Positions 19,868 through 57,517 of a stretch of DNA of 64,000 nucleotides are shown in pieces; position 1 is the first letter of the stretch; each line of letters starts with the position of its first letter. A program made the position numbers and the translations under genes. The stretch is taken from the IMG/VR virus record IMGVR_UViG_3300028591_000009, positions 32,001-96,000 of that record. One strand, 5' to 3'. The notes below the pieces were generated by a model. That model was given only the letters and a program-made list of their open reading frames with translations. It made no database searches and had not been told where the DNA came from. Source of the stretch: a virus. Lineage: Duplodnaviria > Caudoviricetes.

Positions 19868-19948
19868 GGGACAGGTGCTGGATTCGAACCAACATTCTAC
19901 AGCTGACCTATAGCATTACTGCAGTACTACCATTATACTAACCCATCC
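19868..19948 (-). ncRNA. tRNA-like RNA with enlarged (14-16 nt) anticodon loop
   Basis: Acceptor GGATGGGT/ACCTGTCC, D arm GTAT-AATGGTA-GTAC, T arm GTTGG-TTCGAAT-CCAGC. Confidence 0.7.
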
Positions 19949-19951
19949 TTG

Positions 19952-20050
19952 TGTACACCGAGGAATCGAACCTCTCTCCGTTTCGCGAGGACTCGCTTGG
20001 CGATGTCCACGAAGAACCGTCCTAACGTCAATTAGACTTCGGTAGTGTAC
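19952..20050 (-). ncRNA. tRNA-like RNA with extended D-position and anticodon-position arms
   Basis: Acceptor GTACACT/GGTGTAC, T arm GAGG-TTCGATT-CCTC, two long internal hairpins. Confidence 0.6.
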
Positions 20051-20088
20051 TAACACAGTTACGTGCTAAGCAGAGGCTTTACTGTGCA

Positions 20089-20856
20089 TTATGCGGCCTT
20101 ACGCTCAGGAAGGATTATTCGTCCTTTCTTGCGCTTATGGTCTCTCAGATTTCCAGCAACAAACTTCTCACTCTTAGCGGAAGCCTCGTTTACTTTCTTC
20201 TGAGCGTGTTTGAGAAGTTTAGAATCCTTCTTGAGTTCATTGACTTTATGACCTTCGCCATTTATGTCTTTGATCTCAGCGATCTGCTTCTCCTCAAACT
20301 TATGTTCACCAGTCTTATACCGACCAGTCAACGGTAACTTGTCAAACATTGAGACAACAAAGTCTCTGATGCGAGTCAAAGCCTCCTCACGTTCTTTCTC
20401 CCAAAGAGGAATATATTCGTCTTTGAAGAGATCGTCTGTAGGACAGGGCTTCGGATGTTTATGTTCCCACCTCTTCATCTTCTCGTCTTCATAAGCCTTC
20501 ATCTTTGCGGCTTTGCCGAGATTCTTCCAAAGCTTCTTCTCGTGGGCGTGTGCATCTGGGAACTCTGATGGATAATCCCACTTCTTAAGTTCTACGGTAC
20601 CATCTTTGTATCTTATCCACTTTTGTCCACGACATCTTTTACGAAGATTCTTTGGTTGAGGATATCCTTCTTTTGGATTTGTCCAACCACCTCCCTTAGT
20701 ACCTTTTACAGTACCCCAGGAATATTTAATATCAATGATATCTTCCTTCTTAGCCTCAGGTATTGTACAGTTTCTAACGGAATGCTGACGACTGTTGGCT
20801 GCAAGGTTCGCTACTTTTCTTCTACGAGCCTTAAGACGTATGCTGCTATGTGCCAT
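20089..20856 (-). CDS. Lys/Arg-rich hypothetical protein ending -KAA
   Basis: 255 aa ORF, highly basic. Confidence 0.7.
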   Translation of the reverse strand: MAHSSIRLKARRRKVANLAANSRQHSVRNCTIPEAKKEDIIDIKYSWGTVKGTKGGGWTNPKEGYPQPKNLRKRCRGQKWIRYKDGTVELKKWDYPSEFPDAHAHEKKLWKNLGKAAKMKAYEDEKMKRWEHKHPKPCPTDDLFKDEYIPLWEKEREEALTRIRDFVVSMFDKLPLTGRYKTGEHKFEEKQIAEIKDINGEGHKVNELKKDSKLLKHAQKKVNEASAKSEKFVAGNLRDHKRKKGRIILPERKAA

Positions 20857-20885
20857 ATTAGTTTACTTATTAGGTTTACCATATG

Positions 20886-21761
20886 TTATGCAGCCTTTTT
20901 AACGTTCGTAGAGGCCTTTTCTGAGCCTTTAGAGCTCTTTTTAGCGTTCAGCTGTACAGTTATAGCTTTCTGCTTAGCAATGCGCTCAGCAAGGCTTAAA
21001 ACAGCCTGCGTACTGTTGGCCTTTATCCACGCTCGCTTACCAATTTTAACTTTCGTCTTATTGGTTCCGGCGTTTGGACGGGGCGACGGCTTACGTCTTG
21101 CCAGGAGTTTTCCGTTCTTATTAAACTTCTCAGAACCGTGAGTTCTAATCGGTTTAATCTCTCTTGTAATCTTATCTTTAAGTCTACCTATTTGCATTCT
21201 ATGAATGGCACGAGTAGATCCACGACCTTTGAATGTCGCTGCTTTTGCAGCAGCTTTCTTCTCAGCCGTATTGTTAGTAGGCTTCTTTACCTTCTCTCTA
21301 TCTTCCTTAGAGATTACAGACTCCATCTTCTTGGCGTAAGGATATATCTTAGCCTTAGGTGGAGCGATCTCGCGTATCTTCGCGAGTACATCCTGGTTAC
21401 CGTCAATAGAGAAAAACGTATCTCCGTGATACTTATAATGAATATTAGCCTTTGCCAGGGCTTCCTTCACCATGGGACCATCGTCACGATTCAACATTAT
21501 TAAAATGTTGTATTCCTTAGGAGCGTCGAGCTGTTCTATGAGTTTCTTTACGAGCTCTTCTGTTTTTTCGTCGTCGAACTTCATACGCTTACAACGGCGA
21601 CGCAGAGCGTTAATACGGAAACTACGGTACTGTTCCTCACGAGCCTTCTTGCGGGCTTCCGTTTCTTTCATTAGAGTTACTTTACCTGTGGGAACTTTGG
21701 ATGTATTCTTGTTGGTAGCCTGACTCTTCTGAGCAGTTTCTACCTTTGTATTGTTATTCAT
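20886..21761 (-). CDS. Lys-rich hypothetical protein ending -KKAA
   Basis: 291 aa ORF with basic low-complexity C-terminal half. Confidence 0.7.
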   Translation of the reverse strand: MNNNTKVETAQKSQATNKNTSKVPTGKVTLMKETEARKKAREEQYRSFRINALRRRCKRMKFDDEKTEELVKKLIEQLDAPKEYNILIMLNRDDGPMVKEALAKANIHYKYHGDTFFSIDGNQDVLAKIREIAPPKAKIYPYAKKMESVISKEDREKVKKPTNNTAEKKAAAKAATFKGRGSTRAIHRMQIGRLKDKITREIKPIRTHGSEKFNKNGKLLARRKPSPRPNAGTNKTKVKIGKRAWIKANSTQAVLSLAERIAKQKAITVQLNAKKSSKGSEKASTNVKKAA

Positions 21762-21775
21762 ATTGATTATGCTAT

Positions 21776-21955
21776 TTATTTGTTAAAAACTTTGTTAATT
21801 AAACGAGTAATAAAACTCTTTCTCTTGAAGATATATACTATACCCTCTTCACCAGAATTGAATACAGCCTTAAGGTTGTAATCTTTGCTGTGTTTGTTTA
21901 AATCGGTGTTTGCCATAAAATGAGGCAGAACCACCTGCTTGTATTTTGGTTTCAT
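21776..21955 (-). CDS. Small hypothetical protein (start revised to MKPKYK)
   Basis: ATG directly preceded by CATTTATCAAAG leader motif. Confidence 0.55.
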   Translation of the reverse strand: MKPKYKQVVLPHFMANTDLNKHSKDYNLKAVFNSGEEGIVYIFKRKSFITRLINKVFNK

Positions 21956-22003
21956 CTTTGATAAATGAATTTTGTTAAACATGTTAATTATTGGGAAATA
22001 TTG

Positions 22004-22065
22004 CGATCAGTGCGGGAACGATCCGCTCGTACGTTTCTTTACACGTACGCACCAGCATTCTGATC
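22004..22065 (-). ncRNA. D-armless tRNA-like element
   Basis: GATCAG/CTGATC stem, CGTACGT/ACGTACG arm, GCGG-ATCGTTC-CCGC T-like arm. Confidence 0.45.
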
Positions 22066-22075
22066 CATATGTATT

Positions 22076-22618
22076 TTACGCTGCCATATCAATCTTAAAC
22101 ATATCTGCTGTTGCAGCATCGAGATCGATAGAAGTCTTCGTATTAAAGTCCTCCATTGCAGTATCAAACTTGTTAGCCTTCAACTGGAGATCCTTAATCA
22201 TAGAAGCAATCTTTGCAGATGTGAATACCTCATCCTTACCGATATTCTTCAGACCCTTCTGAGCCTTAGTCTTCTGGTCAAGAGTAGGAATCATCTTCAA
22301 CTGACAAATAGCCTCCTTCATCTCGCAAGCCATAAAAATACTATAATTGTTCGTCTTCTTAAACGCCTCCTTGTCAAAAGTAGTAATACCCATATTCAAA
22401 TACATAAGCATACCCTTAATATAGACAAGTTTCTCGGCCATCTGTGTGATCTCATTATAGAGATTCTTCACATCATGGGAACGCAGACCAGCCTTAATCT
22501 CTTTCTTGGAGAGAAGGTTCTCTGCCTTAATATAATTCCAATACTTCTTCTTCTTAGAATTAATCTCATCGCGCATAGCGATTATCTTACTTGAATTCAA
22601 CTTAATTGATTTCGTCAT
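22076..22618 (-). CDS. Helical hypothetical protein ending -DMAA
   Basis: ORF from track, start revised to MTKSIKL. Confidence 0.65.
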   Translation of the reverse strand: MTKSIKLNSSKIIAMRDEINSKKKKYWNYIKAENLLSKKEIKAGLRSHDVKNLYNEITQMAEKLVYIKGMLMYLNMGITTFDKEAFKKTNNYSIFMACEMKEAICQLKMIPTLDQKTKAQKGLKNIGKDEVFTSAKIASMIKDLQLKANKFDTAMEDFNTKTSIDLDAATADMFKIDMAA

Positions 22619-22895
22619 ACTATAAACATTTGATTTAGTTAAACTTCCGTGAATTATGTTGAATTCGAGATTACCTACGTGCCTTATATCCAATCGCTTG
22701 TGTATAAAGCTAAAACTAATCTCCGAGGAGAGGGTCCCTCGAGACCCTACTCCTCAAAACACCCTCAAGTGTATAAATGAGATTGTTTTTATTGTTGTTT
22801 TTACACTTCTCAACTAAGATAAGAATTGTAATAATAAGTGTTTGTAAATCCTTGTCTGCTAATGCCTCGACATATACAGACTAAATCCCTCGAGA

Positions 22896-23483
22896 TTATT
22901 CATCGGACGTACTTACACTCATTCCTACTATCCCCGTTTCCAGGTTAAGAAATGCTTTACCAGTTGCGTCAGGAAAGTGAAATACGCGATGCTTGTCGGA
23001 TACGTTCACGTTCACGACAACGGGCTCTGCAACAGGTTTGACGACTACGCTTGAGCCTGACTTCCTCCGGTCTCCCTCGAGAGACGCTCCACCGCCTTTA
23101 TTGTTGCATACATGCTCGTGTATCTCGAATAAACGAGAAACAACCCAATCATATTCATTTTCGCGTTGTGCTTTCTTAGCAATTTCAACACCAAGTCCTT
23201 CTTCAATGGCAACTGCATTGTCACCTACAGAAAGACTCACAAGGGCATCCCATACGGCTAATGCCCAACTCTCGAACGGCAGTTTTACCTGACATCCGAT
23301 TAGTCGATTCCAGAAATCAAAGCTTGTTTCACCAAGAACTACAGTTCCATCGTCACAAACTCTGAAGATTGCGTATGATTTACCCTCTCCGCCGACAGCT
23401 TTTACTTTTTCTGCGACGGTCTCATTTTTCATCAACTGGACCATCAAACCGATAGACCAGTCTGTGAGGGATTTAACCTTCAT
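22896..23483 (-). CDS. Hypothetical protein
   Basis: 195 aa ORF, coupled to upstream gene. Confidence 0.65.
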   Translation of the reverse strand: MKVKSLTDWSIGLMVQLMKNETVAEKVKAVGGEGKSYAIFRVCDDGTVVLGETSFDFWNRLIGCQVKLPFESWALAVWDALVSLSVGDNAVAIEEGLGVEIAKKAQRENEYDWVVSRLFEIHEHVCNNKGGGASLEGDRRKSGSSVVVKPVAEPVVVNVNVSDKHRVFHFPDATGKAFLNLETGIVGMSVSTSDE

Positions 23484-23484
23484 A

Positions 23485-24159
23485 TTACTCGTTAGATGTA
23501 TGAACGTTAATCACACTCGTAGCGCCACCATTAAGGATGTCCTTAATCTTGACATTATCCATCTTGGAGTCGTTCCACTCCTTAGAAATCTCATCTGCTT
23601 TCTTATCGTTCTCGACGATAGCGCCCTGGATGTTCTGCTTCATCTTGTTCAGAGCTGACATCAGCATGTCAATGTTCTTGAGTTCAGCGCGGTTAGCGTC
23701 GTTCAGAACCTTGGCAACCTTCTTAGCGTCCAGGAAGAAGTTCTCACCCTCAGCGTGAATAGCAGCCTCGATTGCATCTTCGATGGGCTTCTCGGTTACA
23801 ACTGGATTAACACCGTTGTTGAGCGGGAAGAACAAATCACGAGTGCCATCGGGGCGAGCATTGATAGAGATACCTACCTGCTTAGCCTCACCGATACCTA
23901 CTGTATCGAAGCAAGCACCAATGATATCCTTGGTACGGAGCGTGTACTTGCGAGGAGAACGATTGGTAATCAACAGAGCAACACCAGGAGTGTTTGCCTG
24001 CTTCTTGTCGTTCTCAAAGCCTTCCTTGCCGCCGGCCCAGATTTCCTTCATTTCAACTTCAGTGTAAGCTTTGCCTAGCAAAGCACCAATAAGACTAGCA
24101 GCCTGACGAGTGCTAGGGATGACGTTTGAAATATTAACGTCGATAGTTTTTTCTGCCAT
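23485..24159 (-). CDS. Hypothetical protein with C-terminal coiled coil (start revised to MAEKTI)
   Basis: ORF with A-rich leader. Confidence 0.7.
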   Translation of the reverse strand: MAEKTIDVNISNVIPSTRQAASLIGALLGKAYTEVEMKEIWAGGKEGFENDKKQANTPGVALLITNRSPRKYTLRTKDIIGACFDTVGIGEAKQVGISINARPDGTRDLFFPLNNGVNPVVTEKPIEDAIEAAIHAEGENFFLDAKKVAKVLNDANRAELKNIDMLMSALNKMKQNIQGAIVENDKKADEISKEWNDSKMDNVKIKDILNGGATSVINVHTSNE

Positions 24160-24224
24160 TTTTCTTTCCTTTTTGATATCGTGGTTGATCCACCAACGAA
24201 AGATTAATAATTCCTGCTTCAAGG

Positions 24225-26345
24225 TGCAGGTTTACCTTGTTTTATATAAGTTTTACATCCGGCTCGGTGGCTCTACTAGATGTTGACGTTAGACGGTTAT
24301 TGTGATTTCAGTTGCTGTGCTTACGGGAAGCACGCTTCTATTAGAGACTAGTTACACTTCTATATTCCTTAAAATGAAGCTCAACTCATGTAACGGGAAT
24401 CCAACGGTAGGATTATCTAAGCCCATCATCTCAATAGGTTCGAAAACTTTGAACGCTGAATATGTGTATCAAACACTAACCCTATTTGTCGGTATGTTTA
24501 TATTTTCGTAAACATTTATTAAATTTATATTAAATCCAATATTCACTTTTTTCGAGTCCGTTGGCAAAATTTTGGAATTATCCAACTAATGTTCATAGGA
24601 CTCACCACAAAAATTTTGCATAGTTTCTCTGTTAGTATATTTCCCAAGTACCTTAAGAGTTAACTACACTACGATTGTCATTTAACCACAGATTTTCTCT
24701 CCTGTTGCATGATTTAAGGCTCATACTACTATTACCTTTCCTTGTTATTTCAACGTGCTTGTGTTTACCTACGTAAGGATTACGTTTCTTTATCGAACAA
24801 TCTAAGAGCTCCATAACTCTTTTCAAGTACTACGATTTAAAATTCTTCCTAGCGATTCTACGGTACTAAATATTTCTTCTCTTGGATGTGTTTACTCACC
24901 CTCATTATTTATAGTGCACGAATACTGGAGGAATTCCACCTCATACATCGCTTCTTGTCACCCACTTAATGTTCCGCTTCATCGAGTCCTAGTTTCACAA
25001 ACTATCCCAAATGCAACTGGTTGTACGGTTTGCTACTTCTATTTCCTTTACCCCTCCGAGACAGGGAGGTGATTTCACTTCGCGATAAGCTGCCCATCGA
25101 TTAAATGTATATGACTTCATGGTCTCTACCGAACACATAGATTTGCTGTCTATGCTCTGATAGGATTCATCTTGTCTATTTGCTTCTCAGGAACGGTTGG
25201 CACTCGATTTCTGGCGTGAAAGCACTCACAAACATTACAAACGGAGTCTTTCGTTGATATACAACATTAATTTCTCCCAGCCAGGGGACATCAATTTTTG
25301 TTAAACATGTTAATTATCTCTTTTGTTTTCTACTACGTATTATCTTCGTTAGAATCTTCTCCCGATAAAGTATAACGGTATATTGTATACAGTTCGTCAT
25401 CTAACTATCATCTTACTTTCGAAGGAAGCGATCTCTCTCTATACTGGAATGTATAGGCTTCGAATCGACCACCTAGATAAGAAATTTTTGGCTATCTAGT
25501 AACCATCTAAAACGCATTTCCTCATCCTTCAAACATAATACTCGCTTACCAGTACTTGTTATCAATTGAAATAGAGTTTCTCCGCGCTCTTCATCCGCGT
25601 ACCATAGGCTCCAGAACCATATGGATTAAGTGGCGCATCCACTTGTAGTCATTTCCTCTTATATCCCGCACAAACGACTAAAGCCTGGCGGTCATCTTCA
25701 TCATATTTTCCTCTGTACCCCATCCCTGGCACCCCTTCAACGGAGTTGTGCACGAATCGAACGGCAAGGATTTCTCCAAGGACCGTAGTTACGGTACGGC
25801 GCAGACAGTCACACCTTCTGCTAGGCGAATATACTCAGATATTTTTCATCCCTTCATACACGTTGTGGAGACGTGGAACACTAGACTACAGCTTAAAGTT
25901 GATACATCATTGAGTGTTTTGGCTTCAAACTCAATGTTGCGACTCCTGTTTCGTTATGCTATCCTTATGTATCATCAGATAGTATGTCGAATACGGTTCA
26001 GTTTTGCCCATCATTCGGGACTTATGCGTCTTCCTTACTAATACCCCACACTTCAAAGAGTCTGGCAAGAGCATAAAGGACTCTGCTGGTATATATTAGT
26101 GTTAGGGTCTGATACATACGCTCACCCTACTTACTATAAGCGATTCGATTATGTAGTACGCATAAAACTTATAGCATTTCATCCTACCTTTTGGATTTCT
26201 CACCATTTGAGATGGCTAACATATTCTCGGATCAAGTTGTACTATTCGCATTCTAAGGTTGATGAGACCTACTCCGTAGACGAATGCTGACGTGTGCCCA
26301 TCGGGCGGGGAATGTATGAATCCTCATACATCCCCCATGCACCGG
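24225..26345. other. ~2.1-kb hairpin-rich region without a convincing ORF (candidate long ncRNA locus)
   Basis: No - strand ORF of 60 aa or more in the track; TAA/TGA stops in all - frames where sampled; many short stems. Confidence 0.5.
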
Positions 26346-26350
26346 AGTGA

Positions 26351-26833
26351 CTAACGCTTGTAGACTACCTCACCGTCGACTGTGAGGCAAATGGACGCTT
26401 TAGGAGGTCCAACAGTGTCTGGGGTGTACTCCTCGCGAACCCCACGTACTTTGTTGTTAACAATACTATCAGGAATTATAGCTGGTGTGCTCAACCCCTG
26501 ACGTTTTATTGTGGCACGAGCAGATGTACGCTTCTTCTTGTACACTAGGTTCTTTACTCTCGGAGCTTGAGATGTGTCCTTAACAACCACTATTTCTAGT
26601 GGGACATACTCTTTCTCCGTTTTGTTCTGTCTCTCAACTATAGGTTGAGTGATAGATGGCAACGGCAATGCTCGATAATCGGGCAGCGTTGCAGCGTTCA
26701 ATGTCTGATGCTTGCGCATAGACATCTCATTGTTCTCTACCTCCGCTAATGACCACCCTGCTAGGGCAAACAATAGCGAACAAATAATTGTTGTAACTAG
26801 TTTCATACCTTTGATAGATTTCGAAACTATCAC
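26351..26833 (-). CDS. Membrane-anchored hypothetical protein (TAG stop)
   Basis: Hydrophobic N-terminal helix. Confidence 0.65.
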   Translation of the reverse strand: MIVSKSIKGMKLVTTIICSLLFALAGWSLAEVENNEMSMRKHQTLNAATLPDYRALPLPSITQPIVERQNKTEKEYVPLEIVVVKDTSQAPRVKNLVYKKKRTSARATIKRQGLSTPAIIPDSIVNNKVRGVREEYTPDTVGPPKASICLTVDGEVVYKR

Positions 26834-26838
26834 ATCAC

Positions 26839-28230
26839 TTAACCCTTCTTCTCCTCAGGAACAGGAACTTCAACGAGATTGCTCTCCTTGTAGTTGATAG
26901 ACTGAGACAGAGGATCGGTGAACATGTTGACAATAATGCCAGCACGCTGCTGAACATTCTTCAGCAATGCCTCATTAGTCTCATCATCAAGCTCCTTACC
27001 CTTGAACTCAGGATAGTAAGTGTCAATGATATTACCAACCAGACGGTGAGCAAGTTTGTACTCCTCAGAGTCAGTCTTGTCAGACTTGTAGTTGTCAATC
27101 AAAGCGTCTACTACCTCGAATGAAGGATTGGTAGTTTCTGTGATAATCAGGTTCAACTCCTCGATGGCGGTCTCGTTTGCACGAATAGCAGTTTCAGTTG
27201 CTACCTTTGCAGCGCCCTTCTCGTTCTCAAGATGCTTCTTCTGCTCCTTGATAACTTCGTTGCACTCAGCTATTCTACTGTTACATGACCACAGTAAGAG
27301 AATGCGAACGATGTCAGCCACGTACTGATCGTCAATGGTATTGTCCTTCTCAGGAACGGCACTGCGACGATAGAGGCAGAACGACGAAATGGGACTTCCA
27401 GTCTCAGCGGAACGCTTGCGAAGAAAGTAAGCAGTGCCAGTCAATGCAAATGGGCAAGGACCAACAATCTCTGCTATCTCATCCAGCAACTTCTGGCGAG
27501 ACTTATCCTTAACTTCGTTAACGGCAGCCGTCTTGTCCTCAGTAGCATTGGCCTGGATGGTCAAATAGCCACGATAGAACTTGATGGTACGTTGTACACG
27601 TGCGTCTGGGCGATCAATACCGTCAGAGATAGGCTTTACGAGCATGGCTGTGAGAGATGCCTTTAACTGCTCAGGAGTCTTTATCTCCGCAGGATTGCTA
27701 ACTGCCTTGGCGACAGATTCCATTTCCTTCTTTTTGCTTTTGATGGTCTTTTCAGACACGTCCTTCTTGTCAATTGTAACAACACGTGTCTCAGCTGGAA
27801 GAAGGCCAACAACACCTGCCTGTTTGAGCTGTTCCTCTGTAGGAGCAGGAAGCATCTTGAACTCAGGAAGCTTAATTCCGCGCTCAATTGCCATACCCAT
27901 CAAGGCGTTGTAGTTGTTCTCGTTAGCTGTGATGATAAGACCAGCAACACTGTTGCCAGATGCTATCTCAGTAATAGCGACATCGAGGATTGATACTTGT
28001 GCAAGCATGGTGAGACCATCGATAGTGCACTGAGAAGGCTTCTCGGTATTGGTCATCAAGAATGCACGTTCGTTTTGTAGTGCGCCAATATAAGCGACTT
28101 TATCGCTCTGGCTCATACCCTTTGTGTTAGGGTTATTGTTTACAGGAAACTTCACTGTAGTATTATTTTCAGGAGCTCCCTGTGCTTCTGCTGCTGCTGC
28201 AGCTGCAGAAGTCTTGTTGTTTTTTGCCAT
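26839..28230 (-). CDS. Hypothetical protein, 463 aa
   Basis: Long ORF preceded by CGTTATCAAA leader variant. Confidence 0.8.
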   Translation of the reverse strand: MAKNNKTSAAAAAAEAQGAPENNTTVKFPVNNNPNTKGMSQSDKVAYIGALQNERAFLMTNTEKPSQCTIDGLTMLAQVSILDVAITEIASGNSVAGLIITANENNYNALMGMAIERGIKLPEFKMLPAPTEEQLKQAGVVGLLPAETRVVTIDKKDVSEKTIKSKKKEMESVAKAVSNPAEIKTPEQLKASLTAMLVKPISDGIDRPDARVQRTIKFYRGYLTIQANATEDKTAAVNEVKDKSRQKLLDEIAEIVGPCPFALTGTAYFLRKRSAETGSPISSFCLYRRSAVPEKDNTIDDQYVADIVRILLLWSCNSRIAECNEVIKEQKKHLENEKGAAKVATETAIRANETAIEELNLIITETTNPSFEVVDALIDNYKSDKTDSEEYKLAHRLVGNIIDTYYPEFKGKELDDETNEALLKNVQQRAGIIVNMFTDPLSQSINYKESNLVEVPVPEEKKG

Positions 28231-30362: not shown

Positions 30363-30364
30363 AG

Positions 30365-30438
30365 TGATTCCTGAACGATTCGAACGTTCGACCGACAGAT
30401 TAGAAATCTGTTGCTCTATCCAACTGAGCTAAGGAACC
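30365..30438 (-). tRNA. tRNA-Arg(TCT)
   Basis: ACAGA-TTTCTAA-TCTGT anticodon arm; canonical D and T arms. Confidence 0.9.
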
Positions 30439-30499: not shown

Positions 30500-30549
30500 T
30501 GGAATGAGTGCAGGCTTCGAACCTGCCATAGTTCCGTTATTACTCATTC
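30500..30549 (-). ncRNA. Mini tRNA-like element (acceptor stem plus T arm only)
   Basis: GAATGAGT/ACTCATTC stem, 15-nt linker, GCAGG-TTCGAAG-CCTGC. Confidence 0.6.
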
Positions 30550-30860
30550 ACCGTTCACAGGCACTTAGGTAGCCTGTACACCGACTTCACGCTGCCTCCT
30601 GGAGACCCGTGTAGTCTGCAATGTTATAATTGCCAGTTAATTTTTATATCGAAGCGCTTAACGTCTTACTTTCCGCTGCCGTCAAAACCATTCAAGCCCA
30701 GATTAAAAGCTCCCGCCTCTATCCTCTGTACACCTTCTTCAGTGCCAGCGAGTACACAATTCAGGGAGCTTGGAGTGTTAATCAATAATACACGTGGACC
30801 TGGGCGGAATCGAACCGCCGTCCGAACAGCATATCCTAGGACACGCTAAGATTTCACTTG
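30550..30860 (-). ncRNA. ssrA: Permuted two-piece tmRNA: acceptor piece (~30860-30795) precedes coding piece (30699-~30550)
   Basis: GGGCTTG/CAGGTCC-A acceptor with G3-U70; GGCGG-TTCGATT-CCGCC T arm; GGTTTTGAC 5' motif; TAACT-GGC resume context; tag GNYNIADYTGLQEAA* at 30634-30587; outer boundaries approximate. Confidence 0.8.
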
Positions 30861-31999: not shown

Positions 32000-32593
32000 T
32001 CACATAATGTTTATGATACTTCTCACATCTTTTTCTACCTTACTCCAGTTACCACCAGAATTAGCGTTCAATATATCTATTGCGCTTTTAACTGCTTCGG
32101 TTTCTTTTGTAATGATACCGTCTCGGATTTGTTTTATTACTTCAATCAAATCCCACAGTCTACCTGCGTAGCTGTTCATAAAATATACTGCTTGTGATAC
32201 AGCATAACTAGATGGTCCGTGTGTTATACGACCACCGCCGTCACAAATAATGCGAGTTATGTCATCTATATCAATGTCAATAGGCACTGATATTTTACCT
32301 TCTTCAAGCATAGCCAGGGCCTGAGCAAAGGTAATATTCAAGATACTTTCAAGACGATGAGCAGCTTGTGTGCGCTTAACGTCATCTATTGAAGAGATGG
32401 ATATTATATTCATCTTTTTCTCTTGTTTACTATCTCTGTCCAATATAGCTCTACTAATACTATCAGAGTCGAAATGCTTAATCTCTGTTACACCATCACA
32501 CCAGGATGTTGTTAACAGACCATTAGCAAGTGCTTCTACGTTACCTTTTGTAGGTTTTGTTCCTTCGTAGAATACAATAAGCGCGTTCACCAT
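32000..32593 (-). CDS. Hypothetical protein
   Basis: 197 aa ORF. Confidence 0.7.
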   Translation of the reverse strand: MVNALIVFYEGTKPTKGNVEALANGLLTTSWCDGVTEIKHFDSDSISRAILDRDSKQEKKMNIISISSIDDVKRTQAAHRLESILNITFAQALAMLEEGKISVPIDIDIDDITRIICDGGGRITHGPSSYAVSQAVYFMNSYAGRLWDLIEVIKQIRDGIITKETEAVKSAIDILNANSGGNWSKVEKDVRSIINIM

Positions 32594-33565: not shown

Positions 33566-33687
33566 ATTGTATGTATTTTATAGTGAAGATTGTAGTATAC
33601 GGGGAAAAGATATATGCTCTTTAACTCGGGTAAAGTAAAAATGGTACACCCTACAACACCACCGTGTTGATTATACTACAATCTTAG

Positions 33688-33759
33688 TAGTCTATAGCAG
33701 AGTCGAACTGCTCTTTACAGAATGAAAATCTGTCGTCCTAACCGATAGACGAATAGACC
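33688..33759 (-). tRNA. tRNA-Glu(TTC)
   Basis: ACAGA-TTTTCAT-TCTGT anticodon arm; GGTCTAT/ATAGACT acceptor. Confidence 0.9.
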
Positions 33760-33837
33760 AGGTGCCCCTCCGCTGAGGGGCTAAATTAAAATCATCATGA
33801 CTAAAAGTAATTAAAACGGATTTTGCCTTCACAGGTG

Positions 33838-33911
33838 TGGACCAGCCTGGGCTTGAACCAGGGACCCTCAGATTATGAGTCTGATGCTCTAACCAACTGA
33901 GCTACAAGTCC
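33838..33911 (-). tRNA. tRNA-CAT (elongator Met or Ile2)
   Basis: TCAGA-CTCATAA-TCTGA anticodon arm; canonical D and T arms. Confidence 0.9.
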
Positions 33912-45467: not shown

Positions 45468-45561
45468 TATCCCACATACAGCCGATACGTGGGAGGCTGA
45501 GATTCAGGTGGCCACCTGGACCCACGTGAAATTTCCATAATAAAGTTAAAATTAGTTGGTA

Positions 45562-45613
45562 TCCTATCGCATAGAGCCTTATCAAGAGCGGGGAGCGTTA
45601 CCTCGGGTAGGAA
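45562..45613 (+). ncRNA. Mini tRNA-like element
   Basis: TCCTATC/GGTAGGA 7 bp, 20-nt linker, CGGGG-AGCGTTA-CCTCG. Confidence 0.5.
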
Positions 45614-45646: not shown

Positions 45647-45729
45647 GGGTGGCGTTAAGCCCCAGGTGGTTTTGGAACGGCTGGAACAATGATACAGGAT
45701 GCCGAGGGGTTCGATTCCCCTACCAACCA
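45647..45729 (+). ncRNA. tRNA-like RNA with 19-nt anticodon-position loop
   Basis: Perfect T arm AGGGG-TTCGATT-CCCCT, CGGC/GCCG arm, imperfect acceptor; 1 nt upstream of the suppressor tRNA. Confidence 0.5.
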
Positions 45730-45730: not shown

Positions 45731-45805
45731 TGTCCTATGGTGTAGTGGTAGCACAGGAGGCTCTAACCCTCCAGGTCCGGGTTCGATTCGATGGTAGGAC
45801 GACCA
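45731..45805 (+). tRNA. Amber suppressor tRNA (anticodon CTA), probably Gln
   Basis: TGTCCTA/TAGGACG acceptor plus ACCA; GGAGG-CTCTAAC-CCTCC arm; CTA at 45763-45765; T stem imperfect. Confidence 0.88.
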
Positions 45806-45821: not shown

Positions 45822-46373
45822 ATGCAGATGAATATTAAATTTAAAAGACTTACAGAAAATGCAATCGCACCTGTTAAGGCACATGCCGCAGATGCAGGAT
45901 TTGATTTGACGTGTTCATCTATCACAACTGAGATTAACGAACGCGGTCAGTTGATTATAGTATATCACACTGGTTTGGCATTCGAAATCCCCGAAGGATA
46001 TTTTGGAGCACTGGTACCAAGGTCTTCAATTGCTAACAAGACACTTACTCTTACTAACTGTATTGGCGTAATTGATGCTGGTTATCGTGGTGAGGTAATG
46101 GCTAAGATGAAGGCTACTACTGATGTAATTCCTGCAGTATATAAAGAAGGTGAACGATTCGCTCAGTTGCTTATCTTGCCTGTACCAGAAGTGCAGTTTG
46201 AGGAGTCAACAGAGCTTTCTGAGAGCGACCGTGGAGAGAACGGTTATGGCTCTACAGACCAAACAAGCGCAGCAACGGGATCTCAGAGTCTTCCGGAAAG
46301 TGAAGGCAAGCCTATAAACTCTGAGACCGCAACAGAGCCAGCGGCTGGGGAGAACGCCCCTGAGCAGGCGTAA
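45822..46373 (+). CDS. dut: dUTPase (trimeric)
   Basis: AGFDL, PRSS, GVIDAGYRGE, FAQL, RGENGYGST. Confidence 0.93.
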   Translation: MQMNIKFKRLTENAIAPVKAHAADAGFDLTCSSITTEINERGQLIIVYHTGLAFEIPEGYFGALVPRSSIANKTLTLTNCIGVIDAGYRGEVMAKMKATTDVIPAVYKEGERFAQLLILPVPEVQFEESTELSESDRGENGYGSTDQTSAATGSQSLPESEGKPINSETATEPAAGENAPEQA

Positions 46374-48349: not shown

Positions 48350-48354
48350 TAACT

Positions 48355-49359
48355 ATGAATTTAAATCATAATACAAACAAACAAACAGGCGATCAGCTTA
48401 CAGCAGCAGAATGGAATAATCTTGCTGCTGATGTAAATGAATTGGGAGCTGGTGGTGCAGGAAATAACGACACACATGTCTATTTTGATAGCACAAACAA
48501 ACACAACCTTAACCTTGTTACTACGGACTCCGATCAATACATCGACGAGAATAATAAGGTAAAGGGCGGCAAGATTAACATCGAACCGTATAGCGATCTT
48601 CAAATCAAACCTGGTGACGACATTACATTGTATTCTCATCACAGAGAAGATCCAGAAGAACTGGCTGTAAAGGTTCTTAATGGTGCAGAGGTTTCTGCTA
48701 CAGATCAGGCTGAGATCGATGAATACCCTGTAGATCTTCAATTAAACGCATCAAACGTAATTCTTACAACCAAAGACAAGGCTATTACTATTGCCGAAAA
48801 GAATAAGGCTCGTGCAGCCGAAGGAAAAGACAATACTGCAGATAAAGCCAACATTATGAATGTAGAAGTTAAGACTGGTACAAAAGCTAAGAAGGCTACT
48901 GCATCTAATGGTCAATACGGTTATTTGAAGGTTCGCGCAAACGCTATCGATCTTCGTTGTGAAGACCACGGTGGCATTGCTATTCAACCTAAAGGTTATG
49001 ATAGTGATGGCAATATGAACAAGATTAAGTTCGAACATGGCGGTGGCGACGGCCTCGAGTTTGGTACATTCAACACCGAAAAGAGTTCATTGTTCACAGA
49101 CGAATATCGTTTCAACAAGAACGGCGAGATTTATCTTGCTACTCGTCAGACCGAAGCTTCTGGTAAGACAGATGATACCGGTATCTTTGACAACACTCCT
49201 AGCGGCAAGACAGCTACAAACGCACTGAAGTATGTAAAGCAAGCCGACGATTTCTATGATGTTATTGACAGCAACGATCCACATTGCACATGGGGTGATA
49301 TCGTAACATATATTTCTTGGGCTAAAGCAAACAACCAGGGACCCTGGGCAAATCTTTAA
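48355..49359 (+). CDS. Putative tail/virion protein
   Basis: 334 aa, no TAG; KQTGDQLTAAEWN N-terminal motif typical of fibre proteins. Confidence 0.7.
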   Translation: MNLNHNTNKQTGDQLTAAEWNNLAADVNELGAGGAGNNDTHVYFDSTNKHNLNLVTTDSDQYIDENNKVKGGKINIEPYSDLQIKPGDDITLYSHHREDPEELAVKVLNGAEVSATDQAEIDEYPVDLQLNASNVILTTKDKAITIAEKNKARAAEGKDNTADKANIMNVEVKTGTKAKKATASNGQYGYLKVRANAIDLRCEDHGGIAIQPKGYDSDGNMNKIKFEHGGGDGLEFGTFNTEKSSLFTDEYRFNKNGEIYLATRQTEASGKTDDTGIFDNTPSGKTATNALKYVKQADDFYDVIDSNDPHCTWGDIVTYISWAKANNQGPWANL

Positions 49360-49365
49360 TAACTT

Positions 49366-49563
49366 ATGATACACGTAAACAATCATAATATAGTTGGTGT
49401 TTATAGTGGTAATAGGGATATTGTAAAAGTATACAGCGGACTACGCTTAGTCTGGAGTAAGATAATAGACGTTATAACAGAAACATTAAGTTGTTACGCC
49501 AATGGGTATTGGATAGATGAAAACCCTTGGACTGACGAAACACCTTGGTTTAAAGAACAATAA
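49366..49563 (+). CDS. Small tail-associated protein
   Basis: IVKVYSGLRLVW..CYANGYWIDENPW. Confidence 0.65.
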   Translation: MIHVNNHNIVGVYSGNRDIVKVYSGLRLVWSKIIDVITETLSCYANGYWIDENPWTDETPWFKEQ

Positions 49564-49565
49564 AT

Positions 49566-52500: not shown

Positions 52501-55500
52501 AATGTCTTTCTGTAAACAGCACGCTTGCAGACTTCCGTGGTACTACTGCTGATAATAGTGGTCGTCAATTCGATAATGTTATACTTGGTTCAAATGAAGA
52601 TAATACAAGTATTGGTTGGGAAGAAGACTTTGAATTGGTATACCCAGAGAAAGAGGAAATTACCACATCTAAACAATTTGACGCCAATAAGTTTGTAGCT
52701 ACTGTACAACCATTTACGGAATGGTTGCGTTGGATCATTGGTACTTATCATAACCAAGCGCAGTTTGAAGCTACTGCAGCACAACACCTAGACCTTTATA
52801 AGATGGCTGCTTATTACATCTTTGTATTGAGATTTGGTCTTGTGGACTCATTGGAACGTAATGCTCAGATTAAGACGTACGATGGTAAACACTTCCATTA
52901 TGAGCCTTGGGATATGGATATCGCATTAGGTAACCGAAACACTGGCGGTATTGCATTTAATCCTCCTATCGACCGTAATACGATGATGGATGCTACTACA
53001 GGAGCTATTTCTGGTAGATCTGTTATTGATACAAACAATGACGATGTTCCCGATACTACAGTATCTAACTGGCTGTTCGATGCTCTTGAAGCATGGCCAT
53101 ATTGGATGAATACTATTGTTCCGAAGGTAGCTGATGCTATGTATAAGCAGGGTCTTACGTATACAAACGTAATTAACATGCTTGATGGACAGTATCAGGA
53201 TGCCTGGTGCGAAACAATCTATAATGAGACTGGTAACTTCAAATATGTTGTAAACCGTCAAAACGTAGATAGCAATGGCAATATTCTATCTGGATATGAT
53301 GATAGCTGGTTGTCATGGTTACAAGGAGCTCGTACAACTCACCGTCACTGGTGGTTGAAGACCTCTATGGACTACTACGATGCTAAGTGGGGTGTAGGCG
53401 AATTTATGGAGAAGAACATGTACATCGGTTGTGAAATGCACAATGTACAAGGATCTATAAACATTGTTCCTACTTCTTCTACATATTTCATGTTTGAACG
53501 TGAAGCAACTAAGTTTGGTCCATTTGCGGCAACTGTAGACGATCCTTTAGAGTTTGATGTATCTTCTATTAACTCTGGTGCGAAGGTTCCGTTTAAAATG
53601 TACGGCGCCAACTTTATCAAAGAGATTGATATTAGCGACGTAGCAAGCGGCCTTCAAGTATTTTCTATTGCCAACGCATTCTCATCTGAAGTAGGACCTG
53701 TGATAACCAAAGTAAATATTGGAGTTAAGGTTACTTAGCAAGATGCAAATACATATACAGGCCAAGAAAATAATAAAGAAATTTAGATTGCTGCCGGTAG
53801 TTCATTGAATGCTATAGAAGAATTAAATATTCGTGGACAACGTAGTTCAGGTCTACTCGGTACTGGTCGTATACAAGGTCTTGATTTTATAGCTAACACA
53901 AAGACTATTAAGAAGATCTATGCTATGGGTGCCGGTATGAATACACTCAATAGCTGTATAGGTACAGACTTTGATACTCTTGAACTTCCAGATACCATTT
54001 CTTCTATTACATTTAATAGTACTACTTGGGATCCAAATAAATTATCGTTCTGGCATACTACATCTGGTGGTTATGTAACTAGAACTTACACTGATTATAA
54101 AGTAGACGAACAAGGCGAGGTAGTTTATGAGAACGGTGAACCTGTAATGGAGGAGTACACTGTACAGGAAATGAATCCTGCTACATATACAAAGTATGAT
54201 CTCGACGATGCTCAAATAGGAGTATCTATTCCTAGAGGATTGTTAGCGGTTCGTATGACAGGTACTACTGGTAAAAATGCTTGTGCTAGACAGTTTGTTG
54301 TAGACTGGATCGCTTCTATTATCAAATGGGGTACCGAAGATTGGGATAACCAAGAAAACGGTGCAGATGAATACGCATCCCTCGATGAATATTTAACACA
54401 TCTATTCAATGAGAGAACTCTTTCTGTAGAGAATATATATTGGAACAATTCAGCAATTCCTGGTTTGAGTTATGAACAACTTACTTGGATTGCTAAATTT
54501 AATAATATAGATTATTCTCAACAATATACAACTCATCCAAACATAACTAATTTTTCTAGAGGTTATGTAGTACTTACAGATACTAATGCTCTTACTGGTA
54601 TTCAAACATCTTATTTGTCTACATGGTTTGGTGAAGGTGTATTTGTATTAAACAGTAGTGGTCTTGTAATCGATCAATAGTTAGAATATACAACCATATC
54701 TGTAGGTCCTGCCGCATATGTAGAAAATAACGAAATATATATAAAAGAAGGTACATCTGCAAGAATACAGGCGACGAAGTTTAATCTTAGACCATCATTA
54801 TCTTCTACAGAATTTTAGCTTTCTGCTCCAGATTCACAGCTATCTGCATCATCTTATAGAGGAACTAGTATTGTTTCTAATAGGATAGGCGTAGGAGATG
54901 AAGTTATTTATTATCTAAAAGCCGATCCATATGTTACTGGATAGGATTATGATGTTAGACTTGCAAGTGGTTCTGGTAGTGTTATTATCCATGTAAAAGC
55001 TTTAGATTATCCAGAACAAATATTCTTAAGCATACAAGGTAATAAAAAGTTAGATGATAGTGGTTCGAATACAGATTTCTACAAATATGATAAAGGCTTT
55101 GATACATTTGTATTAGGAAACTAGGCTGGTCCATTCTTAGTTGGTGTACAATTTAAAGAAGGCGATAGATGGGTGAATACTCCATCTAACGATACAATTA
55201 AACCTTCGTATGCTAAATTTAAAGTATATAAAAATGATGTACTTTGTTCTAGATTTGAGTACGGAATAAATTATACAGACTTTATACAAGCAGGACTAAC
55301 GACAACTACTTTTGTAGATCAAGCAGACACATCTCTATCTTACATTACTGGATATAAACCTACATCAGACATATACAAATATTTTATCCCACTGAATGTA
55401 GAAAGAACTGTTCAGCAAGAACCGTTAAAATATAGAGTTGATTGTGAGATTAAACTTGGTGGTATGATTACTACGCTTAGCGCCAACATTATACTAATTA

Positions 55501-56513
55501 AGGATTTTGTTGTTGCGCCAGAAGGAAATCCATTGTGGGGTCTTATAAATAACTCGTATGTTCAACAAAAAGGATCTAATTACACACGAGGCGGATTCTA
55601 TAGAAGTATTACTGATTTTATTGTAGGCGATATAAGTGTTGACGGATAGTATAATTTAAATGGTACTTGGACAACAGTAGGATCTAGTATACAAAACACA
55701 ATATCAAGCGGAAGTGGTACTGCTACTAGTATGTTTAAGTACTTACCTGGTATACACGGTATTAAACTTGATGGATCTACAATGGCTTCTACTGCAGAAG
55801 GTATAACCAATATCGATTTGTCTAACGTTCAAGATCTTGTTACGTTCTCTATATAGGATTGTACAAATCTTACTGGTACTATAGATCTATCTTCATTTGC
55901 TAACCTTGAAGAAGTTGATGCTAGCGGAACTACAGTTAATGTATTGATTCCTACACGATCAAAAATAACTAAATATGAATTAGGAGCTCCAACATCAATC
56001 AGCATTATTAATCCTACTGTATTATAGCCTAGTGGAGTTAAAGTAGATTCATGGGGTAATATTAATTCATTGGTATTAAAAAATATACCTGGCAATAATA
56101 CTTATGCAATGTTTGAGCAAATTATGCAAACATACATGTTTGGAGGAGGTCTTATTTGGGGTAAACGCATAAACATTGAAGGGGAAACAGGAGCTGACGC
56201 TTTTGTAGATGATACTAACGAGTGGTGTGTGTCGACATATATTGATATACAAGGTATTTCTTCAATATCAGTAAATGCACCTCATTATACAGGTATACTA
56301 TATTTAGATTCACATTATAAAAAAATTGAGAGAGAAAGATTCTTTGGTAGCGATGATAGTAATGTAGAAACCACAATTACACCTCCGCAAGGAACATATT
56401 ATATGATATGGGGAATTTTATCTAATACAAGCACGCCATCCGTATACTCCAAGAATGTATGTTTTAAAAATGCTAATACAGGACGCACTTTGTTTGAATA
56501 TAAGCCCTCTTAA
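49566..56513 (+). CDS. Giant (~2315 aa) TAG-recoded tail protein with LamG-like, CotH kinase-like and LRR-like regions
   Basis: Track ORFs 49566 to 56070 share one frame, split by TAG; HGQSTLNYP..YK, LQANYADSSGTHN, DSLERN, WDMDIALG motifs; ends TAA. Confidence 0.78.
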
Positions 56514-56541
56514 TTTATACAATAAAGATATTTAATTAGTC

Positions 56542-57441
56542 ATGACATCGTTAAGAATTGAATAGGGATCTGCTGTAGAAAACGTTTCAGAATCTCTTAT
56601 AAAGAAATTGTATGATATAGCTGTTGAAGTACCGCTGCCTGGTGCAGGAGAAGAAGATGCCGCATATCTTTCTGGTCACATAGCAGTAGAGTATACTTAT
56701 AAGTCATATGTTGATTATTTGGCAGGTACTATTGGAGAAGGTTCTTCTGGAGTTGTAACTACAATTAGACAAAACGCAGGTGGAAGATTTGGAGATTTAA
56801 GAATAGATGTAACACGTGGATATTGGATTTTGTTTGAAGATGAAGCTGTAGAAAATGTATTAAAAACAATGTTGCATAAGTCTGGATTAGTTAGTAGTGA
56901 TTTAGATACAATTACCTCATTAACTAGAAGCAGCGGATTTAAAAATAATACTTCCATCACTTCTTTAAACGATCTTTAGTATTTAACTTATTGTACTGTT
57001 ATAGATGAAGAAACGTTTTGGGGCGCAAGTAACTGTGTTACTATGAAACTTCCTCCTATGGTAAGAAGGATTGAAGATTTAAGAAATATGTCAAAAGTTG
57101 AAGGATTAAGAATTCCATCTACATGCACCGGAAATACAGATGGCAATTTGTTTATTAGAATGTTTGACAGCTTGAATCTTTTGGTTGTGGATGGCACTAT
57201 AGACGAACTTAACATGGATGAAGAAAGTGGAAGGTTTGCTGCTCCTACTAATATAGTAATAAACGGCCTTGTAAATAAAATTGTAGTACAAGGAAAAAAT
57301 TATACTACGTGGGGAGGAACAATTTGGGTAGATGATGTTGCTACATATAAAGCTAAAAGCGGTTTTTCTTCATACAAGAGTAATTTGAGTCCTATATCTA
57401 GTATGCCAGCTGCATTATAGAATGCTGTTGCACAATTATAA
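56542..57441 (+). CDS. TAG-recoded BspA/LRR_5-like tail protein (299 aa)
   Basis: ATG 56542; joins ORFs 56608 and 57043; FKNNTSITSLNDLQYLT..IDEETFWG. Confidence 0.65.
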
Positions 57442-57475
57442 TCAATAACACAACCTCAAGTGTCTAAAATGAGGA

Positions 57476-57517
57476 TGCGTAGAATGGTTAATCTTGGTTC
57501 GATTCCAAGCTGCGCAC
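57476..57517 (+). ncRNA. Mini tRNA-like element (acceptor stem plus T arm, 10-nt linker)
   Basis: TGCGTAG/CTGCGCA, AATGGTTAAT, CTTGG-TTCGATT-CCAAG. Confidence 0.65.

Follow-up and report, generated by a model that had tools for sequence, protein, structure and literature searches.

tRNA top-half structures at fixed intergenic positions in a crAss-like gut phage and its relatives: candidate signals for transcript processing

In animal mitochondria, polycistronic transcripts are cut at single tRNAs that lie between the genes. Among bacteria, few cases are known in which RNase P cuts mRNAs at tRNA mimics. Plant mitochondria possess t-elements (Forner et al. 2007, PMC1920247), tRNA-like signals at mRNA boundaries that RNase P and RNase Z recognise as processing sites. 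Mimicry of tRNA is also found in YrlA, a bacterial Y RNA-like non-coding RNA, phages included (Chen et al. 2014, PMC4201824; Rfam RF02553). For phages, we have found no description in the literature of tRNA-like punctuation as it is known for plant mitochondria.

Here we report that tRNA top-half RNA structures occur at fixed intergenic positions in a gut phage of the crAss-like group and in phages related to it. The window, i.e., the whole stretch analysed, is 64,000 nucleotides long (positions 32,001 to 96,000 of IMG/VR record IMGVR_UViG_3300028591_000009). A first-pass annotation had listed seven such elements (E1–E7, Table 1), and reading the sequence on the gene strand, we have found all of them in place, between genes and in the same orientation as the ORFs on either side; transcription is assumed. 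For E6, which had been given as 45647–45729, the T arm and the 19-nt loop stand, while the 5' boundary has to be moved, as the orthologues place the start of its 5' strand GGTGGTTTTGG at 45665.

Table 1 Features of the window discussed in the text.
Feature	Coordinates	Strand	Description
tRNA-Leu(TAA)	14083..14166	-	canonical; alone between two co-directional genes
E1	19869..19948	-	tRNA-derived; 8-bp acceptor (G-1:C73), D arm, T arm, 16-nt 'anticodon' loop
E2	19952..20050	-	cloverleaf-like with long arms; 7-bp acceptor, 4-bp D-like stem closing multiloop, 7-bp middle arm with variable tip, T arm
Conserved hairpin	20053..20087	-	GCACAGT ... ACTGTGT, loop AAAGCCTCTGCTTAGCACGTA; directly 5' of E2
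E3	22004..22066	-	D-armless mimic; 6-bp acceptor GATCAG/CTGATC, TGGTG linker, 7-bp hairpin with loop GTAAAGAA, T arm GCGG ATCGTTC CCGC
tRNA-Arg(TCT)	30364..30438	-	canonical; downstream of E4
E4	30500..30549	-	minihelix (G)AATGAGT / 15 nt / GCAGG TTCGAAG CCTGC / ACTCATT(C)
Permuted (two-piece) tmRNA	30587..30845	-	tag GNYNIADYTGLQEAA; Rfam RF04321, 64.5 bits; ARAGORN
tRNA-Glu(TTC) and tRNA-Met(CAT)	33687..33911	-	canonical
E5	45562..45613	+	minihelix TCCTATC / 20 nt / CGGGG AGCGTTA CCTCG / GGTAGGA; swapped T loop
E6	45665..45729	+	mimic; acceptor helix with two bulges, hairpin CGGC/GCCG (19-nt loop), T arm AGGGG TTCGATT CCCCT
Suppressor tRNA (anticodon CTA)	45731..45805	+	directly 3' of E6
E7	57476..57517	+	minimal minihelix TGCGTAG / 10 nt / CTTGG TTCGATT CCAAG / CTGCGCA; 7-bp acceptor, 5-bp T stem; strict scan match

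Comparison of the sequences shows E1–E7 to be RNA structures under selection, in which the acceptor-stem/T-arm coaxial stack is retained and the anticodon half has been lost, shrunk or replaced. In six of the seven elements, the stack comprises 12 positions (7+5 or equivalent) and the T stem abuts the 3' acceptor strand without a spacer; the linkers, by contrast, measure 10 nt at the least and over 90 nt at the most. RNase P and RNase Z need no more of a substrate than this conserved part. A regular anticodon arm (5-bp stem, 7-nt loop, U33, readable anticodon) is lacking in all seven. That place is taken by a 16-nt loop in E1, a 7-bp stem with variable tip in E2, an 8-nt loop on a 7-bp stem in E3, linkers of 10–20 nt in E4, E5 and E7, and a 19-nt loop in E6. 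A G-rich linker, present in most elements, could support the elbow. The exchange of A54/U58 in the T loop, which had been noticed in two elements, is real in E3 (ATCGTTC) and E5 (AGCGTTA), and in the same slots of relatives the swapped loop alternates with the canonical TTCGAAT. At the 3' side, mimics and real tRNAs have a common flank, N73-C-(A/T)-A, and CCA is never present: C74 is found in 30/30 real tRNAs and 28/36 mimics, C75 in 0/30 and 0/36, respectively.

In a strict acceptor-plus-T-arm scan, the whole 106.6-kb genome yields 6 T-loop sites (three true tRNAs plus E1, E4 and E7), compared with 0.6 in dinucleotide shuffles. The strict scan misses E2, E3, E5 and E6; the support for E2 comes from a covariance model and that for the other three from orthologues. 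In 1.38 Mb of sequence from relatives, there are 39 distinct non-tRNA strict top-half matches against 2–7 in shuffles, and 32 of them are intergenic, with 31 on the gene strand and 1 antisense.

We have further asked, slot by slot, how often at least 11 of 12 pairs occur together with a T-loop-like loop. A scanner accepting any 7-nt loop had not separated the real sequence from shuffles, and it was replaced by this T-loop-constrained one. The counts are 31/56 for the DNA polymerase slot (3.6% in shuffles), 12/27 for the E3 slot (1.5%), 5/6 for the E4 slot (1.7%), 9/11 for the E5/E6 slot (5%) and 8/11 for the E7 slot (5%), where binomial P values overstate independence because the relatives share phylogeny. 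Within every slot, many distinct stem sequences occur among the relatives and the pairing is kept. An nhmmer search of the relatives with E1, E4 and E5 gave no sequence homologues, and those slots are conserved in shape only. In the minimal elements E4, E5 and E7, the T loop is the only sequence that relatives have in common. The single dispersed family proposed by the first-pass annotation gives way to several slot-specific families.

One may argue that the elements are decaying tRNA pseudogenes, i.e., functionless remnants of phage tRNA turnover, and published crAss annotations do label such loci pseudo-tRNAs (10.64898/2026.08.21.746148). E1 and E3 are clearly tRNA-derived. On the Rfam tRNA model (RF00005), E1 scores 42 bits with a 16-nt insertion and is the only element to pass the gathering score of 29, and in its 5' part E3 is similar to the tRNA-Gln that occupies the same slot in L066 and L078; moreover, E1 has no sequence homologue in relatives, though its slot is filled in most of them. 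In a genome-wide search, E2–E7 went unreported on this model even at E<=1, and the orthologue of E7 in L011 reaches 23.7 bits. Against decay, the 12-bp stacks have been maintained by compensatory changes in five slots and dozens of relatives, only the bottom half decays and the top half stays intact, the strand bias in intergenic matches is 31 to 1, and the families of E2 and E3 are conserved in shapes that are not those of tRNAs. The covariation largely refutes this explanation; we reject decay and consider it very improbable. That structure is under selection had been suggested before, and positional conservation, covariation and a match rate above that of shuffles, three tests set in advance for their power to refute it, all strongly support the suggestion.

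E1 and E2 precede the DNA polymerase gene, with the end of E1 29 nt before the ATG. ARAGORN (-i) reads E1 as tRNA-Asp with a 9-nt intron, which we rejected: the residual loop AGGTCAG has no U33, and we know of no bacterial splicing system for such a 9-nt tRNA intron. E2 scores 109 bits on covariance model R1. This model has 34 significant members, each from a different related locus and all upstream of the polymerase gene. In this family, 97.6% of cells are paired and 19/21 pairs show compensatory changes on both sides, values reached by 0/500 shuffles. E2 has no Rfam match at E<=10 and belongs to a new cloverleaf-like RNA family. The hairpin directly 5' of E2 is conserved as well, with a recurring loop and a covarying stem (CACGGT/ACCGTG in L063 and L077), and the polymerase leader beside E2 carries a motif common to replication genes. 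A blastn search with E2 and this hairpin against named phages gave no match. Scanning IMG/VR with a 17-mer of the E2 core gave 32 matches, among which 22 loci were new; by the covariance model only 2 of these are real members, and the rest are chance. In some relatives, the polymerase slot holds real tRNAs (Met, His, Asn).

G-U pairs are confined to one strand (e.g., UG in 20 of the E2 sequences at one pair), which points to RNA rather than DNA. This bears on the explanation that the elements act as DNA or transcription signals, such as replication or recombination hairpins, attP-like tRNA fragments or terminators. Small hairpins do follow some elements (E7), and the occupant of a slot differs between close relatives, suggesting recombination. 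However, strand-specific G-U pairs are frequent, U tracts are absent, both acceptor strands are present, unlike in attP fragments, and all the elements lie on the transcribed strand. We regard this explanation as the least probable, slightly behind even decay. In addition, ATTAAC was rejected as a promoter placing the elements at transcript 3' ends, as the motif is not enriched (31–35 observed vs ~58 expected per strand).

The E3 slot tells of a gene end. E3 starts ~10 nt past the stop codon of ORF 22076–22693, and in relatives that have the genes on both sides (27 distinct spacers, that of the window among them) its orthologues stand directly past the stop codon of the homologous gene. Some relatives have a real tRNA-Gln in this slot instead. 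The orthologue alignment gives a consensus fold with compensatory pairs. At the acceptor stem, the two E3 subgroups could not be aligned by MAFFT. The junction of E3 contains two mismatches. A search for targets complementary to its loop gave nothing informative.

E2 and E3 retain single-stranded sequence, namely GAAAC, GTTAGGAYGG, the loop GTAAAGAA and an invariant T arm. Their conservation exceeds the needs of a pure processing signal, and once excised, these RNAs may serve in some other way as well. This raises the alternative that the elements are stable tRNA-like small RNAs acting in trans, either as decoys or sponges for top-half readers (acceptor-end-modifying toxins, the CCA-adding enzyme, TruB/TrmA, EF-Tu) or as regulators of phage genes, e.g., DNA polymerase, with processing only releasing them. 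The near invariance of these segments where flanking proteins are only 50–80% identical would fit such a role, as would the covariation, which shows the importance of the folded RNA, and the constant position of E2 beside the polymerase leader with its replication-gene motif. On the other hand, E4, E5 and E7 lack the shared sequence, the slots follow gene boundaries and not a promoter or terminator of their own, and the elements are replaceable by real tRNAs of differing identity. Decoys for anticodon nucleases would require an anticodon loop, and a Ro60/TROVE domain partner was not found in the genome. Overall, we think a role in trans unlikely, yet less so than the two explanations above.

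E4, a strict scan match, lies between the permuted tmRNA, whose coding piece it directly follows, and tRNA-Arg on its 3' side; it is separated by 37 nt (30550–30586, small hairpin included) from the TGA that closes the tag frame. This position is where a two-piece tmRNA needs a 3' cut. The tmRNA was found in 5/5 complete relatives, and 4/5 relatives have E4 orthologues with covarying stems after it. We also considered E4 as the alanine-accepting tRNA-like domain of the tmRNA and rejected this, since in the ARAGORN prediction both halves of the domain precede the tag, at a distance from E4; its output can be read as the stem GGGCTTG/CAGGTCC with G3:U70, and the Rfam match stops at 30587, short of E4.

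E5 is upstream of the suppressor tRNA, and its orthologues in L019, L007, L016, L020, L009 and L011 have different acceptor and T stems, that of L011 with a canonical TTCGAAT loop. E6 adjoins the suppressor tRNA with a spacer of 1–2 nt; in its orthologues (L011, L013, L021), the hairpin stem covaries, plus one acceptor pair (T/A to A/T). E7 is followed by a small hairpin and then by the leader of ORF 57581–57961. Its slot contains minimal forms in L011, L015, L016 and L020, and forms of 75–107 nt with a D arm in L006, L007, L009, L010, L011, L019 and L021.

Structure, conservation, covariation, strand and position of the elements are established by these comparisons, and from them we infer cleavage and its consequences. 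Host RNase P would cut the 5' end of each element, and host RNase Z or an equivalent 3' activity would cut past the discriminator or C74, for which t-elements are the natural precedent (PMC1920247). In this way, the elements would part neighbouring mRNAs in the polycistronic early and late transcripts: those of the polymerase slot would fix the 5' end of the DNA polymerase leader, E3 would fix the 3' end of the upstream mRNA, E4 would free the coding piece of the two-piece tmRNA, and E5 and E6 would free the suppressor tRNA. The junction mismatches of E3 and the acceptor bulges of E6 might act as weakeners of RNase P recognition. No CCA-adding enzyme, metallo-beta-lactamase-fold RNase Z or RNase P component was found in the phage genome, and the proposed cutting would therefore depend wholly on the host. 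Pfam recognised only dUTPase among ten flanking proteins, and no related loci were found for the 463-aa ORF 26839–28230.

Overall, the reading we hold to be somewhat probable is that the selected top-half mimics, like t-elements, act in cis as signals to RNase P and RNase Z of the host. The first-pass annotation had left the choice between transcript punctuation and decoys; punctuation fits the comparative evidence better because the slots are fixed to gene boundaries, tRNAs and mimics interchange, the 3' flank is common to both, and E4 follows the tmRNA coding piece, while the decoy half of that proposal has neither gained nor lost support. A wider scheme is conceivable but more doubtful, in which a clade-wide tRNA-punctuation system runs on bacterial enzymes. 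Real tRNAs and mimics in fixed slots would direct the RNase P and RNase Z cuts of early and late polycistronic RNAs, including maturation of the two-piece tmRNA and of the amber-suppressor tRNA, and the excised E2 RNA would also control DNA polymerase expression or replication.

If the punctuation reading is true, this would be the first case found of a bacterial virus with top-half mimics as systematic transcript punctuation, and a mechanism of organelles and a few eukaryotic long RNAs would be extended to phages. It would also account for the recurrent 'pseudo-tRNAs' that tRNA finders report in Crassvirales genomes, and offer a handle on how abundant gut and rumen phages shape mRNA, tmRNA and code-switching suppressor tRNA. 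RNA databases gain, at the least, a structured RNA family that is new and well supported (E2), plus a second (E3), and the shortest elements are natural minimal substrates, 41–50 nt, for RNase P and RNase Z of Bacteroidales. As a model, the cultured phage crAss001 was considered and set aside, its tRNAs being clustered and only one or two unannotated tRNA-like candidates being present.

Among the known systems, canonical tRNAs (RF00005) share with the elements the acceptor stem, the T arm, the T-loop consensus and the 3' flank, whereas E2–E7 are without a D arm, an anticodon arm, or both. The topology of YrlA, with the acceptor end closed and the anticodon end open, is the opposite of theirs; its model (RF02553) at E<=10 gave no match in the stretches with E1, E2, E3, E5 and E6, and E4 and E7 were scanned at the gathering threshold only. 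The mascRNA of MALAT1 and its MEN-beta counterpart (RF01684) are likewise top-half mimics, which RNase P and RNase Z cut within a long transcript, but they form a eukaryotic family, and E6 is not a member because its weak local match reaches 15.3 bits (E=2.5) against a gathering score of 42.5. In animal mitochondria, the punctuating units are functional tRNAs, while more than half of the phage units have no usable anticodon arm. The t-elements differ in that their cleavage has been demonstrated, whereas that of the phage elements is predicted; the latter would also rely on bacterial enzymes, fall into slot-specific families with strong covariation and a minimum of 41 nt, and adjoin a tmRNA and a suppressor tRNA. 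The t-elements and the phage elements are alike in several respects: a non-canonical fold with an acceptor stem and a GGTTCRANYCC T arm, real tRNAs in the same role, and, in the phage elements as in t-elements, an acceptor stem and T arm with a T-loop-like loop set in sense-strand spacers at gene boundaries.

The source record, of which bases 32001-96000 form the window, is complete (106.6 kb, terminal repeats present), and the phage is assigned to Crassvirales, the closest named genomes being the Suoliviridae phages cr272_1 and cr273_1 (~75% DNA identity to the window across replication genes). According to the window ORFs, the gene strand is minus up to ~43.5 kb and plus thereafter. ARAGORN and Rfam have identified five canonical tRNAs (Leu, Arg, Glu, Met, and a CTA suppressor) and a circularly permuted tmRNA, single or paired, each between co-directional protein genes.

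We have read the seven tRNA top-half mimics (acceptor stem plus T arm; E1–E7) on the strand of the neighbouring genes and folded them. The stems proposed by the first-pass annotation are recovered, and so are the swapped T loops of E3 (ATCGTTC) and E5 (AGCGTTA), which carry A54 and U58. For E6, the T arm and loop hold, while the 5′ start has to be moved from 45647 to 45665, where the 5′ strand GGTGGTTWTGG begins according to four orthologues; two bulges interrupt its acceptor helix, in which one pair swaps T-A to A-T among orthologues. E1 reaches 42 bits on the Rfam tRNA model, in an alignment that requires a 16-nt anticodon loop. An intron-bearing tRNA was rejected for E1: ARAGORN calls it only with a 9-nt 'intron' allowed, and the residual loop lacks U33.

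Positions of the mimics and neighbouring features in the window, and of one element in crAss001
Feature	Position	Strand	Remarks
ORF	15950-16426		Preceded by the CTAGTATTAAC repeat
Repeat of CTAGTATTAAC	16427-16456	-
Polymerase leader	19841-19868	-	CTAGTATTAAC...AGAACCTATGAGTC-ATG; near-invariant among relatives
E1	19869-19948	-	Mimic
E2	19952-20050	-	Mimic
Hairpin	20053-20087	-	Conserved 21-nt loop AAAGCCTCTGCTTAGCACGTA, covarying stem; precedes the polymerase-slot tRNA-like element in many relatives, some without E2
ORF	20886-21761
Small ORF	21800-21980	-	~60 aa (MKPKYKQ...), conserved; between E3 and ORF 20886-21761; found in L025, L026, L033, and L040, absent from other relatives
E3	22004-22066	-	Mimic
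E4	30500-30549	-	Mimic
tmRNA	30587-30845	-	Circularly permuted, two-piece, phage-encoded; tag GNYNIADYTGLQEAA
Hairpin ACGTGGGAGGCTGAGATTCAGGTGGCCACCTGGACCCACGT	~45487-45535	+	Upstream of E5
E5	45562-45613	+	Mimic
E6	45665-45729	+	Mimic
CTA suppressor tRNA	45731-45805	+
dUTPase gene	45822-46373	+	Downstream of the suppressor tRNA; Pfam 74 bits
E7	57476-57517	+	Mimic
crAss001 element	4141-4234	+	94 nt, unannotated

The first-pass annotation had named similar match rates in shuffled sequence, or a lack of positional conservation or covariation, among the results that would speak against the family. Our strict scan demanded seven acceptor pairs, a linker of 4–95 nt, five T-stem pairs, a TTCRANN loop, and zero spacer between the T stem and the 3′ acceptor strand. 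On both strands of the whole genome it finds six T-loop sites, namely three true tRNAs and E1, E4, and E7, against a mean of 0.6 in 30 dinucleotide shuffles. Only ten T arms with a TTCRANN loop occur genome-wide: five in the tRNAs plus tmRNA, four in E1, E4, E6, and E7, and one within an ORF. In 1.38 Mb of related loci, ARAGORN reports 53 genes and the strict scan 44 further sites (39 distinct sequences; 2–7 in shuffles). Among the distinct sites, 31 are intergenic on the gene strand and one is intergenic on the opposite strand; the other seven lie within long ORFs, about the background level. Directly after the discriminator, 30/30 real tRNAs and 28/36 mimics have C; the position that follows is never C in either set, and the third is A in 24/30 and 28/36, respectively. 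That is, the mimics and the real tRNAs of the phage have a common 3′ context.

Relatives were fetched via the DNA polymerase (80 loci) and a late protein (23), and five complete ones were reached via the tmRNA model. The slots of E1–E7, i.e., intergenic positions fixed relative to neighbouring genes, are kept in relatives. In nearly every one, an acceptor-plus-T-arm element ends about 25–31 nt before the polymerase ATG, followed by a conserved leader, CTAGTATTAACTAAAGAACCTATGAGTC. In some relatives this slot is taken by a real tRNA (Met, His, or Asn), in many by an E2-type RNA, and in the rest by other minihelices. With a T-loop-like loop required, at least 11 of the 12 pairs are present in 31 of 56 distinct upstream regions (3.6% in shuffles), and these 31 use 25 different acceptor strands; cr272_1 keeps the geometry with a degenerate loop.

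A covariance model of E2, built from 12 sequences, recovers 34 significant members, one per locus, all of them lying upstream of the polymerase gene in the same orientation, and IMG/VR has two more. In the alignment of 38 sequences, 97.6% of cells are paired and 19/21 pairs show changes on both sides; 0/500 shuffles equal these values, and slid registers fall to 39–56% paired. In the fold, the acceptor has 7 bp, and a D-like stem of 4 bp closes a multiloop that contains GTTAGGAYGG; a 7-bp middle arm, with a tip of anything between a 7-nt loop and a 27-nt insertion, and the T arm complete it. E2 has zero Rfam matches at E<=10 and is a new covarying RNA family.

For E3, we have compared 27 distinct spacers (window included) from relatives having both flanking genes. 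They begin with a tRNA-like element ~10–12 nt past the upstream stop codon. Eleven sequences form a group that retains the E3 shape; their T arm is invariant, and compensatory changes affect both the middle hairpin and the acceptor. In a second group the loops are canonical (TTCGAAT or TTCGATG), one relative has a bare minihelix, and five have a real tRNA-Gln. The 5′ sequence of this tRNA-Gln resembles that of E3, which thus appears to be a tRNA-Gln in reduced form. Neutral decay of tRNA genes would account for the origin of E1 and E3, but it leaves the compensatory changes, the strand bias, and the conserved non-tRNA shapes unexplained, and is very unlikely; these same features bear out the earlier argument for selection on structure. 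At the level of sequence comparison, the structures and their maintenance by selection are demonstrated. Strand-specific G-U pairs and the lack of U tracts agree badly with a role at the DNA level or as terminators, which we consider extremely unlikely.

The permuted tmRNA occurs in 5/5 complete relatives, and in four of them a minihelix lies just past its coding piece. Acceptor strands in this E4 slot are AATGAGT, GGTGAGG, AGTGAGG, or AGTGAGT, each with a matching 3′ strand. E4 is not the tRNA-like domain of the tmRNA; ARAGORN puts that domain at a different place, which makes E4 an additional element. The tmRNA has a G3:U70 pair by reading of the printed ARAGORN stems, and tags end in EAA in 4/5 complete relatives.

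Upstream of the suppressor tRNA, six relatives have an E5 orthologue with different stems and three an E6 orthologue; where E6 is missing, only about two bases separate E5 from the tRNA. The E7 slot has minimal forms in the window and four relatives, and longer forms (D arm plus a 44–76-nt middle part) in seven; L011 has both, and on the tRNA model its long form reaches 37 bits, a 47-nt stretch replacing the anticodon arm. The suppressor tRNA itself has just 34 bits on Rfam and a poorly paired T arm (CCGGG TTCGATT CGATGG) conserved among relatives, and, unlike all other tRNAs here, appears to begin U1-G72 and to encode ACCA. The hairpin ACGTGGGAGGCTGAGATTCAGGTGGCCACCTGGACCCACGT, conserved and covarying in the window and five relatives, has zero Rfam matches at E<=10 and might serve the suppressor-tRNA module as a leader or regulatory RNA.

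Across the slots, the conserved part is the 12-position acceptor/T stack plus T loop, and the decoding part varies freely. This stack and loop are the portion read by RNase P, RNase Z, and the CCA-adding enzyme. Mimics and real tRNAs interchange within one slot, slots are tied to gene boundaries, one falls at the point where a 3′ cut is required for the two-piece tmRNA, and another adjoins a tRNA needing a 5′ cut. The simplest mechanism fitting these features is cis-acting processing by host tRNA maturation enzymes, which we infer, cleavage included, as somewhat probable. Enzymes of the RNase P/RNase Z type would cut phage transcripts at the mimics, with the E4-slot element supplying the 3′ cut for the tmRNA and the element adjoining the suppressor tRNA its 5′ cut. 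Host enzymes would be needed since neither a CCA-adding enzyme nor a metallo-beta-lactamase-fold nuclease was found encoded by the phage. Once released, the RNAs may also work in trans, either regulating the adjacent polymerase gene or serving as a decoy for tRNA top-half readers; E2 and E3 conserve more sequence than a cut site requires and such a role is compatible with processing, yet we hold it rather doubtful. Overall, the finding is real and well supported by comparison, and the processing mechanism is plausible.

One crAss paper gives two such loci as low-scoring pseudo-tRNAs (10.64898/2026.08.21.746148). In cultured crAss001 (MH675552), tRNAs are clustered, without the dispersed arrangement of the window phage. 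The 94-nt element of this cluster, between tRNA-Lys and tRNA-Phe, has a perfect acceptor and T arm (GGGTACA ... GGGAG TTCGAGT CTCTC TGTGCCC), and crAss001 encodes a Ro60/TROVE protein adjoining a 900-nt gap. E1's tRNA score aside, none of E1–E7 belongs to the tRNA, YrlA, mascRNA, or tmRNA tRNA-like domain families, and text searches of the literature collection consulted gave no account of conserved tRNA-like punctuation for any phage. Plant mitochondrial t-elements, which were found by the same GGTTCRANYCC search and coincide with mRNA ends, are documented to undergo cis-processing by tRNA maturation enzymes (PMC1920247). The phage mimics would work alike, the t-elements being a functional class and no sequence family. 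The phage elements are plausibly a new variant of t-element-like RNA signal.
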